From NCBI GenBank assembly GCA_951406725.2, contig OX597830.1:29388001-29452000 (forward strand): a stretch of DNA of 64,000 nucleotides, given 5' to 3'. The DNA is from Octopus vulgaris (lineage: Eukaryota). Shown piece after piece: positions 2,978 through 58,699 of this stretch; position 1 is the stretch's first letter, and each line of letters opens with the position of its first letter. A model generated the notes under the pieces. That model had not been told where the DNA came from, did not search any database, and was given only the letters and a program-made list of their open reading frames with translations. The position numbers and the translations under genes are program-made.

Positions 2978-3732
2978 GAAAACTATGATAATTAATAGAT
3001 ATGTATATGGAGATATATCAACACAACGCATACGTACACATGCACACGCGCTTGCATCATCCACAGCGAAACTGACGTATAAACGTATACGTACACACAC
3101 ATATATATATATATATTTATATATATAATAGCAATTTGCGCCCGGCGTTGCTTGGTTCTTATGACCTACAACCACATTGTATTATCTGTTCCTTTCTTAT
3201 GGGCGGAATCGGCACACGAGAATTATGAAGCAAACAACTCCTCTCTATAAACATGTTTTTCGGTCATTTTCTGATGAACAACGCTGTAGTTTCTGTTTAT
3301 CAATTTCGGTCGCAAGTCTGTTGTTGACCTAGAGCATAGTAGAAAAAACCTTAACCAAAGTACTATTTAGAGGAACTGAACATGGAACCATGTATTTGTG
3401 GAGCAAACTTATCAACCACACAGTTATTCTTGCAGCTAATATCCGCATGTGTTTACATTTGTTATTAAATCGAGTATTGTGTTCCACTATGTCTCAAAGC
3501 TATGTCTCAAAAGTCTATAAAATAATTGTCAAATTGAAATCCGTAAATTTTTGAAGGTGATACCCATCATGGCAATATTCGAAAGGTTAAACACAGTAAT
3601 ATGTTTAAATATTTCATGGCTTCAAATTTAAGGTAATGGATTGTTAACCACAAGATAGAAAGTTCAAAACTTCGTATATAACTTCCACTCTATACGATAA
3701 TACTATATGTACGTCACTTCCAACAATTAACA

Positions 3733-12224: not shown

Positions 12225-12533
12225 ACCTAACTGTACGAATAATTTTACATAGATTCCATATATAAATACTCACACACACACACACACACGCACATACACA
12301 CACACATGCACTCACACACACACACATATCGGAATAAATATATATATATCGGAATAAATGCGCTAAGCGGTGTTTACTTATGATCACAAGTTTGGTTCGT
12401 TAAAATATGTTTGTCACATATTTCAACTGCTAACGGCAAATACACTGCAGTTACCGTGAAGAAAAAAATCTCTCTTATGTTAAAAAGGTGTGGAAACACC
12501 CCTTTCGTTCAGTGGAAACACCCTCTCTCGGGA

Positions 12534-12580
12534 ATCTGAGACATCGATGTTTCGAGTTTATCGTCTCTTGTCGATCAGAT
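12534..12580 (-). ncRNA. Hammerhead variant (TCGACAA / TTGANAA-type core)
   Basis: Minus strand: ATCTGA-TCGACAA-GAG ACGATAAA CTC-GAAA-CATCGATG-TC-TCAGAT; perfect 6-bp stem I and 10-nt palindrome ACATCGATGT. Confidence 0.7.
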
Positions 12581-12854
12581 GTACCTGAGAGGTAAAATCT
12601 TTATTATGATCATTAGCATCGTACATTAAAAAGGACATTACAAGAACAAATGCAGAAATGTTAAATGAGTTCGAATGAGATTATGTAAAAAATTAGCTTA
12701 AAAAAATATTTTATAGAAACGATTAACTTTTTACCTTTAACTTTTTACCTTTTTTTATTTTAAACGAAAACAAAGAAAGAAAAAAATAAATGTTCAAAAG
12801 ATCAAACCCGGCATCCTATAAGGCCCAGCAATTAGCTTTTCCTTTCATCGATGA

Positions 12855-13620
12855 TTAAGCTGGGTTACTGAAACTCACCTTTCTCATCCTATCCTTCCAT
12901 CGTTTCTCGTATTCCCTCGGTGGCAGGGTCTCCCTCTCCATCTCCATCTTGCTCTTCAGATGATATCTGAAGTAAGACAGCAAACCGAGGCCAGAGATGA
13001 AGGACCCTGAAAAAAACCTTCCAATCTCGTCTCCAAAAACGCTTTTTAAGTACTGCAACCGTAGAGTAAAAACAAGCCTTACCTTCTTTTGAGAGTCCAG
13101 TTGGCGGTATCATCTTTATTATAGATCCAGCCGACAGCGGTACTCGTCCCAGATGCGACAACACGTGTTCAACGTAACTTCTCAAGCTAGATTGCTCCCA
13201 ACATTGTACAAAAGCATTCTGAACGGTTTCATCGTCCAGCCCACATCTTGGACATGTCGGTAGCACTAACAAAACGTGCCTAGATAACTTATCGCGAACT
13301 GGTAATGCATTCCCGTAGCACTGCCAGGTCAGGGACTTTTGGAAGTTGTCCAAATACCCCAGCCTGAAAGTTTTTCTGAACAGGTTGGCAAATTGGTTCT
13401 AATCGAACCCCAGAGCCCCTCCTAGAACGTCATCGATTTTAGCCTCTACCAACCCTCTATAGAACACCGGGGTGGTATTCCCGCTGCCGCCCTTGCCCGT
13501 CTTTTGGATCAGCCAGAGTGCCTGACAGCACTCCTGCCATATTACGTATTTTAATGAAACCGGGTTTAAATCTCTTAGATGTACCTGAGATGTGCAACCC
13601 TGAACGAACTGACAAAGCCA
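12855..13620 (-). pseudogene. Tx1/L1-clade LINE ORF2 C-terminal fragment (zf-RVT-like zinc knuckle)
   Basis: ORF 12889-13353 FQKSLTWQCYGNALPVRDKL..TCPRCGLDDETVQNAFVQC; frameshifted flanking ORFs 13399-13626 and 12855-13058. Confidence 0.8.
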
Positions 13621-13767
13621 ACACATTGACTGATTTGCGCTAATAGATCGCCCGATCCAGAAAAATATCGGAGTAAATGCGCTAAGCAGTGTTTACGTAT
13701 AATCACAATTTAGGTTAGTTGAAATATGTTTGTCTCACTTCCATGCATTCGTCGTGTGTGGATTTAA

Positions 13768-26589: not shown

Positions 26590-27125
26590 CTAGCGCCAGG
26601 CGTAATTTAGGTTAAGTAAAACATGTTTGTGTCATATTTCAACTACTATAAGGCAAATTCACAGCCAGTTACTGTAGAGAAGTTATCTTTCTTACGGTAA
26701 AAGGTGTGAAAACACCCAATTTCTTAAGTGTCGCCATTTATCAGGATACCCAAACAGCAATGTTCCAAGTTAGTTGGCTTTTATCAATGAGAAGTACCTA
26801 AGAGAAGTAACTCTGAACAAATGCTATAAAGCAGTAGCTTTATGTAAATTACAGTTAACAGCGTTGACTGATTTGCGCTGGGAAATCGACCGATCGCGTA
26901 AAATAATGAAATATTAGCGCCAATAGGGTGTTTTCACACCTTTTTACTATAAGAGAAATATTTTCTCTATGGTGATTGCAGTGAATTTGTCTTTTAGCAG
27001 TCTAAATTTGCCACAAACATATTTAAACTTTATTTATGCCGAAACACTGCTTGGCGCTCATATTTCGCTATTTTTCACGATCGGGTGATCTACCACGGCA
27101 ACTCATTTAACGTTGTTGAATAATT
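26590..27125. mobile_element. pLTR-like unit in direct plus inverted arrangement with a decayed hammerhead
   Basis: Homologous to 12347-12600 and 13620-13738; 26925-27125 is an inverted copy; minus strand 26747-26793 reads TTGATAA-AAG..CTT-GGAA-CATTGCTG-TT. Confidence 0.7.
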
Positions 27126-50762: not shown

Positions 50763-51339
50763 GGGGAGAATAAGAATAGAGAAAGAAAGAGGGACGAGAG
50801 AAAGAGATAATTGTAGTGAGGAGGAGGATTCTTCATTTAACGAACAAATTAAGTTATATGGCAATTGCAATCGGCACATTTAAAGGTATTAGATGGCAAT
50901 TTATTATTTAATTCCAGCTTAGCCTGCAAATTTCAATGATAGCTCAATATCACAAAACTTCCCGAGACTGTGTTTCTATGAGCGTTTACGTGATGTATAT
51001 TTAATTTCTACTGCTTCTTATCTGTTTTATTTATTCATCTTAAAGATTTGCTCATTTTATTTAACGTTCATTTATTTATAAATTCATTCTCATTCCCTCC
51101 TCCTCCGCAGCTGCTTCAGGCATCACTGACATAATTTTCATCGAAAATAATTCCGACTTTGGAGAAAATGTTATTTAGGAGTTTTAAGCAAGAAAATGTG
51201 AGAAAAATTAGAGAAAATATATTTAAATAGAGAAAGGAGCAAGAGAAAAACAAAACCAAAAAAAACGTAACAGAAGGTGAGGAGGAGGAGGGGGAGGACG
51301 GCAATGACAACGACGAAGGGGTAAAGTAGTGGCAGCAGT

Positions 51340-51418
51340 AAGAGCAGCTGCAGTAGTAGAAGAAAGAGCAGCAGCAGCAGTAGTAGCAGTAGTAGTAGTA
51401 GTAGTAGTAATAGTAGTC

Positions 51419-51460
<42 letters not shown>

Positions 51461-51461
51461 A

Positions 51462-51515
<54 letters not shown>

Positions 51516-51670
51516 AAAAAGATTATCTGATGATGATGATGATGATAAAGAAGAAAAAGAAGGATGAGGAGGGCTAGCAGGAGGGGAGGAGGAGGAAGAA
51601 GAAGAAGAAGAAGAAGAAGAAGAAGAAGAAGAAGAAGAAGAAGAAGAAGAAGAAGAAGAAGAAGAAGAAG
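51340..51670. repeat. Compound (CAG)/(TAG)n, (GAT)n and (GAA)n microsatellites
   Basis: Direct inspection. Confidence 0.95.
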
Positions 51671-52039
51671 AGAAATAAATTGGAGTTGGGTGGAAACAAA
51701 TGATTAATATTAACATAGAAATTAAAGTTAAAATACCGATTAGAAAAGAACCAGGTGACATTCTATAAAAATATATGAAATAATATACAAAAATTCCAAA
51801 TGTATATTCATTCGAGAACGGAAATTTTTAAGCCAATTTCCCAAAGTTTATGAAAAGTTATTTCATCTTATAATCTATATAATATCCCTAGACATTAGTT
51901 ATTTATATTTTGTTAAGTGTTAACTTAAGTGTGTCATTCCGATGATGTCTTAGTTTGGATTATAATTACGATTAAGCTTATTAAATAGTGGTGAGATTCT
52001 AGTTGAATGTGTCATGTGCAAAACATATAAAAAATTGTT

Positions 52040-52110
52040 ACATATTAAGATACCTAGATGAGAAATGTTGAAAATTAAAGGTGTCTATTTACTTCCTGCA
52101 TGTCTGTGTA
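52040..52110 (-). mobile_element. Solo 5' end of the 49061 Tc1 family, inverted
   Basis: Reverse complement matches 49061-49130. Confidence 0.75.
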
Positions 52111-52216
52111 TATATATATATATATTGCGATAATAAATCTTTTATTGTTGTCATTTGACTTCGGCCATACTTCAGCACCACATCGAAGATTTTAGTCCAA
52201 CAAATCGACTGTAGGA

Positions 52217-53180
52217 CTTGTGCGTACTTCTCGAGATTTTTGCGAACTGTTCCCAGGGCTCCGACAATTATTGGTACTACTGCCACTTTTTAATCGACCA
52301 CAACTGTTTAAATTCCCAAACTAACCTGTCATCTCTCGACTTTTCTTTCTTCCTTATCGCATACCTTGTTGTCAGCTGGGCATGCTATGTATATGATCCA
52401 GTGTAGTTTGTTTTCTTTCTCAATTAAAACTATACCCGACTTCCTATTCTTCATCTCATGGTCGCACTGAATCATAAAATCCCACAGGATCTTTGCATTT
52501 CTGTTTTCGACGATGACTTCAGGTTTGTGATCGTTCCAATTTTTTGGTCTGTCAGGTCCTTACTTGTGGCAAAGTGTCCAATGGACAAGCCTGGCTATAT
52601 TGTCGTGGTGTCTCTTATATTCCTTCTAGGCTAGTGGCGTACATTGGCTGGTAATATGCCATACGGTTTCACCGTTATATTCCTTCTAGGGTAGTGGTGT
52701 ACGTTGGCTGGTAATATGCCATACGGTTTCACCTTTCTGTCCATAGATTCTGCACATCACTTTCTGCCGTGTTGTCTATTCTGTATTTTATGTAATTTGT
52801 TCTTAGTGCTTACTCTTCGGCAGTACAAATTAGAGCCTCCGTTTCCGGTTTTTAACCACTTTTAGTCATCCACAGCCATGTTTTTTCTTTGTCATACCTT
52901 CAACATCCCTATGAAGTTGATCCTTCATTCTTTTCTTTGCCCACCTATTTTCAGTTTCATTCGTTTACTATTTCTTGTATAGTGCTTTATCTTTACAATC
53001 TTTCATCCTGACCTTCTTACTTCTAATAATAGCAGTTCTGTGGCATTTTTCACATACCATGCTATGTTGTTTTCTTCTGCTATAATGCTGTGTTCGCATC
53101 CAATAAGTCCTCTTCCCCACCTCTTTTTCTTGGTACATACAGTTTGTGTCACTTTTTCACTTTCAACGACCTCCGAAATG
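52217..53180 (-). pseudogene. R4/Dong-like non-LTR retrotransposon 3' fragment (zinc knuckle + restriction-like endonuclease)
   Basis: GRGLIGCEHS..EENNIAWYVKN; GQKGETVWHIT..RHHDNIARLVHW; KILWDFMIQCDH; VVPIIVGALGTV; many stops and frameshifts. Confidence 0.85.
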
Positions 53181-53210
53181 AACATATTATTTTTATTATT
53201 ATTGTTAGTT

Positions 53211-53271
<61 letters not shown>

Positions 53272-53395
53272 CAGCAGCAGTAGTAGTAGTAGTAGTAGTG
53301 GTGGTGGTGGTGGTGGTGGTGTTAGTAGTAATAATATTAGTGGTGGTAGCAATAGTAGTAGTAAGGTTGTGGTGGTGGTGATGGTGGTGGTGGTT

Positions 53396-53460
<65 letters not shown>

Positions 53461-57561: not shown

Positions 57562-57841
57562 CATTCACACAGATACACACATGTATATTATATATATAAG
57601 TATGTTTGAGTGCATATGTGCGTTTGTGTGTGTGTGTTAATAGCGGTAACTCATTAAACTGTATGATCATTTAAAAGTGTTGATGAAGATTGCTGTAAGC
57701 CAGTAAAGAAGTATATAACAATCAGCGAGGTGCGTAGTTTACGTTCTTATTTATGGATGTCTGCAGTATTTCACTTAATTTCTATTATCATTACCCTCAT
57801 TTTCTGGATGCTTTTGTTGTCGTCTTGTTATTGTTATTTGA

Positions 57842-57879
<38 letters not shown>

Positions 57880-57974
57880 CCATCATCATTATCACAAATA
57901 TCATTATTCGTATTAATTTCTTTTGTTTTTGCTGCCTTTTTATAATCACTTTCGTTTTATTCAAGACTAATATA

Positions 57975-58220
<246 letters not shown>

Positions 58221-58699
58221 TTATTTTTATTTTGTTGTTGCTGTTGTTATGGAGTCATATCATCATCAGTTGTCAAAGTATATATTTGTTTATTTATATA
58301 TTTCGTATTTTATTACGTTTGTGCTTTTGAATTTGTATATTTTCCTTTAAGATATCCAACATTAAAAAACTTCTTAAAAGTTTCTCTATTTTAAATGATC
58401 AAATGAATATAATTTTGCCTTGCCATCAGAGATTTTAGAGAACAGAGTGAAATAATAAGAATCATAGTCATTATAAATATGTTGGTGTCATTAAATGCGA
58501 TTAATTGGCACTATGTGGTGTGACATATGTATTTCATTACTTCAACATTTCATCATTTAAAATACAGACACATATACGCATAATTATATAATTATATATA
58601 TATATATATATGTATATATAACTAGAATTATATGTATGTATCTACCGTCTACCTATCAATCTATCTCGTAGTATGCATGTATACATATGTATATGTATG

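Follow-up and report, generated by a model that had tools for sequence, protein, structure and literature searches.

An old LINE insertion bounded by a target-site duplication within a putative hammerhead retrozyme of Octopus vulgaris

On the minus strand of a 64,000-nucleotide stretch of Octopus vulgaris DNA (hereafter the window; contig OX597830.1, positions 29,388,001 to 29,452,000), a piece of a LINE lies between two parts of a repeat, termed U, and is followed directly by a hammerhead ribozyme. The locus raises the question of which element moved the other. The original prediction proposed that a Penelope-type ribozyme terminus had captured the LINE and mobilised the resulting chimera, with the flanking U pieces as pseudo-LTRs, and named as the alternative a Tx1 element that targets the repeat.

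Read along the minus strand, the locus begins with a partial U monomer (13594–13737), delimited by BLAST to other U copies, which is followed by the 5′ copy of a 17-nt target-site duplication (TSD; 13577–13593), a 5′-truncated and decayed L1-group LINE (12594–13576), probably of the Tx1 clade and assigned from a zf-RVT match, its relatives and a tree, and the 3′ copy of the TSD (12577–12593). A type I hammerhead with a variant core and a palindromic stem III (12534–12580; predicted cleavage after 12540) was recognised by its fold and covariation, and the rest of the U monomer (12342–12533), placed by the U alignment, consists of the 3′ arm of a long stem and then the part that is repeated upstream. 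The predicted ORF2 3′ fragment with its trailer was confirmed at about 13576–12594 by its zf-RVT domain and by 83–85% identity to the 3′ ~1 kb of three full-length copies, and the predicted hammerhead was found at exactly 12580–12534. The U pieces had rightly been described as repeated (13737–13665 and 12418–12346; 87.7% identity over 73 bp), but the upstream piece reaches 13577, and the downstream part continues it. A direct-repeat search revealed an exact 14-bp repeat at both LINE ends (13590–13577 and 12590–12577), absent from the original prediction, which can be extended to 17 bp with one mismatch (16/17 identical). The flanking repeats are one continuous U copy rather than two copies of one terminus, and the site is unbroken and empty in at least 19 of the 29 other U copies (from the best 30 of 1514 candidates). 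The LINE piece lies inside a U retrozyme copy, and U did not capture and carry it.

The LINE itself comprises the 3′ end of ORF2 with zf-RVT, a 3′ UTR and AATAAA at 12605–12600, with no poly(A). Full-length copies of its lineage, termed alpha, are 5.25–5.45 kb long with TSDs at L126, L128 and L129, and Pfam searches with pieces of the L127 copy returned Exo_endo_phos, RVT_1 (below the cut-off, in a fragment) and zf-RVT. A relative, P0002, best matched human L1 ORF2p with an E value of 9e-63, compared with 1e-27 for R2. The cephalopod Argonauta hians supplies a close, named relative of the LINE protein, and metagenome relatives mostly show 24–32% identity, with two at 42–44%. With an APE endonuclease, a reverse transcriptase and a C-terminal zinc domain in ORF2, variable 5′ truncation, a fixed 3′ end and a TSD, the focal LINE is classified by sequence as a member of the L1 group. 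A poly(A) tail is typical of the L1 clade proper; it is absent from 74/74 alpha ends, and the lineage ends in AATAAAGATTT. The label Tx1, which we take over from the original prediction, is presumably the right one. The lack of poly(A) combined with target specificity fits this clade as described in the accessible text of PMC4494074 and PMC4640811, and the focal LINE probably belongs to it.

The 74 alpha ends are exact matches to the 3′ end motif (control, 5). Duplications of 9–21 nt are present at 31 of them, 18 of these measuring 16–18 nt, and the 5′ truncation points vary among loci. A fixed LINE 5′ end at query base 2 was considered and rejected, the copies concerned simply extending further upstream. 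No sign of RNA-templated 3′ TSD copies was seen; the TSD mismatches are spread along the repeat. In a tree of 51 rows, each with at least 200 bp of one region and with a bootstrap that had not fully converged, the focal copy fell within the alpha clade (support 97/91). A second lineage, gamma, formed a clade of 14 rows (95/90) split from alpha with 100/100 support, although its rows had been chosen for U downstream and the clustering of the gamma label is partly circular.

The host repeat was surveyed with the downstream part of U in the 2.8-Gb genome (227 contigs, microsatellite-rich); the best 40 of 1514 candidates were scored and 30 loci were fetched. Its monomer is ~340 nt, with a period of 334–342 nt in L036, L040, L051 and L056, which lies inside the range of 170–400 nt for tandem monomers used to define non-LTR retrozymes. 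Among the best-scoring empty copies, 14/28 have an inverted 5′ segment and 14/28 a microsatellite 5′ flank. The Penelope-type insertion signature that the original prediction had invoked is borne out for U itself in its partial tandems, 5′ inversions and microsatellite flanks, a geometry matching that of Penelope-type retrozymes in the accessible text of PMC7229834, PMC4209133 and bioRxiv 10.64898/2026.07.22.740005.

The focal hammerhead consists of stem I (ATCTGA/TCAGAT), the core TCGACAA, stem II, GAA and a palindromic stem III, with C17 at 12540 and the core numbered U3-C4-G5-A6-C7-A8-A9 at 12574–12568. The CTGA at 12578–12575 belongs to stem I and not to the core, because it covaries (of 23 copies, 11 have G-C and 9 have C-G). 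In alignment A1, which covers 23 of the 30 U loci, the type I fold pairs 88.9% of cells compared with 27–46% when the fold is slid, and the covariation was matched in 2/500 shuffles, a statistic that ignores relatedness. The U core reads TCGACAA in 12/23 and TTGACAA in 5/23 copies and departs from the canonical C3 U4 G5 A6 N7 G8 A9; the accessible text of PMC3088659 and PMC4209133 records U3:A8 as a covariation with activity and U4C as a weaker variant found in nature, and a search on the terms of this core variant found no paper. Counting against the ribozyme, a single-sequence fold of the focal copy does not form stems II and III (z = −0.29). Rfam hammerhead models gave zero matches in the window and region and likewise zero in canonical copies of another hammerhead repeat, group A, and are hence uninformative. 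The focal host is an ordinary 1.2-unit U copy with one hammerhead, not the two complete tandem hammerheads by which the accessible text of the 2026 preprint defines an 'active' copy.

We regard U as a non-LTR-type hammerhead retrozyme that is predicted to self-cleave. It resembles the non-LTR retrozymes and Penelope pLTR hammerheads covered by the accessible text of PMC7229834, PMC4209133 and bioRxiv 10.64898/2026.07.22.740005 in its ~340-nt monomer, type I topology, palindromic stem III, partial tandems and 5′ inversions and in that no coding capacity was seen; it is unlike them in its U3:A8 and C4 core, its dispersal as 1–1.5-mers among the loci seen and its U2-like upstream motif. The genome also holds a GIY-YIG (Penelope-like) family with many intact 781-aa frames, for example in L212 and L217, and a 3′ hammerhead with a U3:A8 core (TTGATAA) is present in 7/30 of the GIY-YIG loci (L213–L216, L222, L224 and L230).

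A sister locus in the window had been described as carrying the same U and hammerhead. U is indeed present (26604–26923, minus strand, by BLAST; 71–74% identity), with a single target copy at about 26805–26790 and hence an empty site, but its hammerhead is decayed (GAA to GGA) and the adjoining U stretch (26926–27118, plus strand, by BLAST) is an inverted 5′ segment of Penelope-type geometry, not a direct repeat. This locus is an older empty U copy with an inversion. Nor was the LINE–hammerhead junction of the focal locus encountered elsewhere. The many loci with the same LINE–hammerhead junction that capture would leave came down to one pattern match genome-wide, with up to two mismatches allowed; there were no U junctions among the other ends of 85 alpha 3′ ends, and 0/29 in other copies of the focal LINE 3′ end. 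A poly(A) or a TSD near 12600 had been proposed as a sign of simple insertion, and the TSD is there while poly(A) is absent, as in the relatives. The original prediction had itself named a unique junction and a TSD belonging to the LINE as contrary to a chimera; both are found, the TSD being 14–17 bp, and empty sites are common. The capture model is rejected for the focal locus, which is an old, dead, ordinary insertion in a U copy that ends at the family's common 3′ end (~+245) within an (AT)n/(GT)n tract.

The alternative, a Tx1-type element that targets the U repeat, is supported by the insertion counts of both lineages. Hammerhead repeats follow 25 of the 74 alpha ends and fall into five groups (A 14, A′ 2, B 5, C 3 and U 1), with two more ends in a possible sixth. 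When duplicated loci are collapsed, these are 25 of about 63 events, because ten ends are near-identical copies (94–97%) of one zinc-finger-cluster junction. All alpha insertions in hammerhead repeats are co-oriented. A relaxed hammerhead descriptor matched 18/85 junctions compared with 7/1500 random and 5/850 shuffled 100-mers; the 85-junction set left out L016 and 14 loci overlapping the pattern set, and no end was found in L017, L027 and L028. The hammerhead core lies +25 to +28 downstream in 17 descriptor matches and at +20 in U. Group A has a canonical hammerhead fold with covariation (alignment A2, 20 of 25 loci), and the upstream repeat was recovered by BLAST in 15/21 group A and A′ loci, plus L129 and L098. 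Target specificity has been defined as one repeat type in more than 20% of flanks (PMC4494074, accessible text), and here U takes 17/30 flanks of the gamma query and hammerhead repeats 25/74 flanks of alpha; group A alone accounts for 14/74 alpha ends, or 14 of about 63 events. Further hammerhead-like targets beyond A, B, C and U were noticed in L075, L015, L180 and L182, two of them with U3:A8-type cores. Two LINE lineages have entered group B retrozymes (L023, L178, L204 and L172), at a pair of sites separated by about 10 nt, and L023 seems to carry both insertions.

The gamma lineage came to light in a U copy, L046, which has a 65% identical LINE at the focal insertion site. A LINE-only query from this copy retrieved 30 loci (the best-scoring candidates), of which 17 join U at the focal base; the remainder lead into other hammerheads (3), the 5′ end of another LINE (3) or (TC)n (2), have lost the end (3) or are unassigned (2). 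The gamma–U junction pattern has 23 matches against 0 for the control. In seven gamma loci the upstream U is retained and ends at the +14 base, as in the focal TSD. The focal site is a hotspot, with one base used by two LINE lineages. Tandem insertions separated by the TSD were seen at L176/L199, L173/L198 and L191. Large internal deletions with differing breakpoints mark nearly all gamma loci in which both ends survive (L189–L192, L201 and L202) and may reflect decay or template jumping.

It is at loci with a LINE and a U tail but no upstream U that capture could apply at most. Upstream U is missing from 10 of the 17 gamma–U loci over 7 kb or as far as a preceding LINE, which counts against insertion; these orphans have no TSD either and stop at the 3′ ends usual for U, and intact 781-aa GIY-YIG frames with 3′ hammerheads are at hand in the genome. 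However, a microsatellite flank was found at 0/10 orphans compared with 14/28 empty U copies (p = 0.006; the 14 include one case of U's own AT run), and an inversion at 0/8 compared with 14/28 (p = 0.013). Large internal deletions in 6/7 gamma loci with intact flanks show that deletion can explain the orphans, and the 30 GIY-YIG loci, searched for a partner Penelope-like element, share no similarity with U or group A. Co-mobilised chimeras are one possible reading of the orphans, but deletion is the more probable cause, since microsatellite flanks and inversions are missing and six of the seven intact-flank loci are themselves deleted. Together with the focal TSD, the empty sites and the unique junction, this leaves capture of the LINE by a Penelope-type terminus highly improbable.

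What marks the target within U may be a promoter. The motif ATCAGT (at most one mismatch) occurs between −67 and −57 of the target in 18/18 U2 upstream regions, which fall into few promoter types, in 10/13 group A and 11/13 U copies, compared with 0/15 U6 upstream regions and 322/5000 random windows. It is a short motif measured from a start that is only predicted, and it sits at −57 to −61 in U2 and group A and at about −66 in undeleted U. A TATA-like tract in U lies mainly at −38 to −43, with a second at −30/−31 in 6/13 copies. In the focal copy the motif, a predicted proximal promoter element (13629–13634, minus strand) common to U2 snRNA upstream regions, is at −41, the upstream U having lost ~24 nt including the TATA-like tract relative to empty copies, a deletion that may pre- or post-date the LINE. 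A sister LINE that is 85% identical to alpha ends at U2 +1 in 2/20 U2 loci (L241 and L248, position 1500). The upstream ATCAGT shared with U2 promoters and the sister LINE at U2 +1 make it likely that the target is a transcription start; both the shifted motif spacing in U (−66 rather than −59) and the focal loss of the TATA-like tract count against this, and on balance we lean slightly towards the LINE target in U being a predicted transcription start of an snRNA-type promoter. In the tree, the LINE of L100 groups with L241 and L248; the 11 nt that follow it have no Rfam match, and we take them to resemble the U1 5′ end.

These observations are best explained as a 5′-truncated LINE between 17-bp target copies in a retrozyme, inserted by target-primed reverse transcription at a predicted promoter start. 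We consider this explanation probable as a whole and its anatomical part nearly certain; it rests on the observed duplication, empty sites, shared site, co-orientation, constant core spacing and U2-common motif. The retrozyme U would have inserted first, by Penelope-type machinery, and the LINE later by ordinary target-primed reverse transcription at the predicted start of U's snRNA-type promoter. The LINE APE endonuclease may nick at a YC/AYCTC-like start sequence, helped by pairing of a few bases with the tail-less RNA end TTTTA[C/T]C, and the host promoter would drive transcription of a full-length copy at the site.

About 60% of alpha ends lie outside hammerhead repeats, which counts against promoter targeting and, with the MITE-like sites and (TC)n ends, means that sequence preference alone may explain much. 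An endonuclease preference for GC/AYCTC-like sequence combined with 3′ microhomology would produce the same focal anatomy, its overlap with a promoter start being incidental because retrozymes are abundant and carry such a motif. Starts of the AYCTC/TACT type recur at the off-target alpha sites, the ATCTCT-like site at which the focal alpha copy entered U is motif +66 rather than motif +59, and copies with beta-type tails lie in a MITE-like repeat, one site of which holds 7/74 alpha ends; ATCAGT was at the expected distance in 0/3 MITE-like sites with a clear TSD. However, the spacing is kept in the group B and U2 targets even though ATC is all that they have in common with group A, the sister lineage sits at U2 +1, and the insertions in hammerhead repeats are all co-oriented. 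We judge sequence preference as the sole cause to be rather unlikely. The MITE-like repeat itself is ~280 bp long with ~60-bp terminal inverted repeats and 693 candidates, recalling Tx1 in Tx1D; it hosts copies with CATTTTA-type tails in L126, L091, L110, L117, L123, L070, L086 and L026, and empty copies are found in L359–L366.

A second alternative reads the site as the 3′ splice acceptor (pyrimidine tract and YAG) of a Penelope-derived intron, so that the LINE would be expressed or removed by splicing. The targets read YCTCTAG or CTCTCAG-GT, full-length alpha copies start with the acceptor-like TTTTTCCTCAG, and the Drosophila virilis PLE intron ends at the 5′ end of helix I in the accessible text of PMC4209133. 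By contrast, the group B and U2 +1 targets have no acceptor, and this reading is very unlikely. The focal TSD contains AG-GT (13593–13577 and 12600–12577), which places the insert between a GT and a pyrimidine tract with AG, and exact splicing-out would be possible in principle.

Beyond promoter-start insertion, a bolder extension, possible but doubtful, is that Tx1-type LINEs have radiated as parasites of ribozyme retrozymes, exploiting both ends, promoter and hammerhead alike. Transcription from the host's snRNA-type promoter would give a LINE RNA that opens with the first base of the target duplication and whose 3′ end would be cut by the hammerhead of the host repeat, ~55–60 nt downstream. 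The RNA would thus carry target sequence that guides the next insertion and allows hops between retrozyme groups and U2, and the focal copy, an alpha element at gamma's exact base in U, would be a fossil hop. None of the group A and A′ junctions (0/21) has a LINE end at the ribozyme cleavage site, as 3′ transduction would give, and processing of the LINE RNA by the ribozyme is so far unsupported.

The targeting system documented at the focal locus is real and can be set beside known ones. Keno and Utopia insert inside the U2 gene, unlike the insertion found here at U2 +1, and Ty3 and the Dictyostelium TRE5-A target small-RNA promoters. Like R2, Ty3 and TRE5-A, the octopus LINEs occupy a fixed place in a transcribed multicopy unit and likely use host transcription; unlike them, they occupy a ribozyme repeat that is itself selfish, and it is this host repeat, not the element, that carries the ribozyme. 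R2 is co-transcribed with its host (PMC4494074, accessible text). Keno and Utopia share one site in the accessible text of PMC4640811 and PMC4494074, and the close sister lineage in U2 genes is a likeness to the U2 snRNA-targeting Keno. In the accessible text of the same two papers, Tx1 targets comprise Tx1D, Mariner, Harbinger, LTR elements, U2, U5, 5S, microsatellites and 'satellites', the last named in the Fig. 3 legend of PMC4494074 and possibly including ribozyme carriers. Target-specific Tx1-clade LINEs in other transposons include Xenopus Tx1 in Tx1D, the crocodilian Tx1-Mar in Mariner-N4_AMi and Tx1-9_AMi in Harbingers (PMC4494074, accessible text), and the beta-tailed copies in the MITE-like repeat are a likeness to these. 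The octopus LINEs share with the Tx1-clade elements of that text an APE-type L1-group structure, a fixed site in a multicopy transposon, TSDs and TSD-separated tandems, and are unlike them in targeting hammerhead retrozymes of several unrelated groups, co-oriented and just 5′ of the ribozyme.

We found no literature report of hammerhead retrozymes as LINE targets or of snRNA-type promoters driving animal retrozymes, in a search to which Repbase, subscription papers and supplements (such as Kojima's target tables) were outside scope. To the known targets of target-specific LINEs, which comprise rRNA, snRNA, tRNA, microsatellites and transposons of the DNA or LTR type, hammerhead retrozymes add a class. 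The fixed distance to the ribozyme and the U2-like motif suggest that snRNA-type promoters may drive animal retrozymes. The focal locus contributes a variant-core retrozyme target, a shifted promoter spacing and one base used by two lineages; with −66 rather than −59 spacing, U is a useful case for separating promoter tethering from sequence recognition.

Several minor observations accompany these results. Rfam snRNA models matched none of 20 other alpha targets; the single Rfam match there was 5S rRNA. L004 has a whole 5S rRNA (2986–3104, minus strand) fused almost directly to the last ~415 nt of an alpha LINE (2566–2980), a SINE3-like chimera, and the 15-mer at this junction is seen again around another LINE piece at a distance of 1 kb. 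Ten near-identical copies on C27 and C29 (L111–L114, L119–L122, L124 and L125) have a 68-bp LINE end joined to coding sequence for C2H2 zinc fingers, probably one event spread by gene-cluster duplication. Elsewhere in the window, arrays of repeats with a 9-bp period occupy 51258–53400 and 57838–58280.
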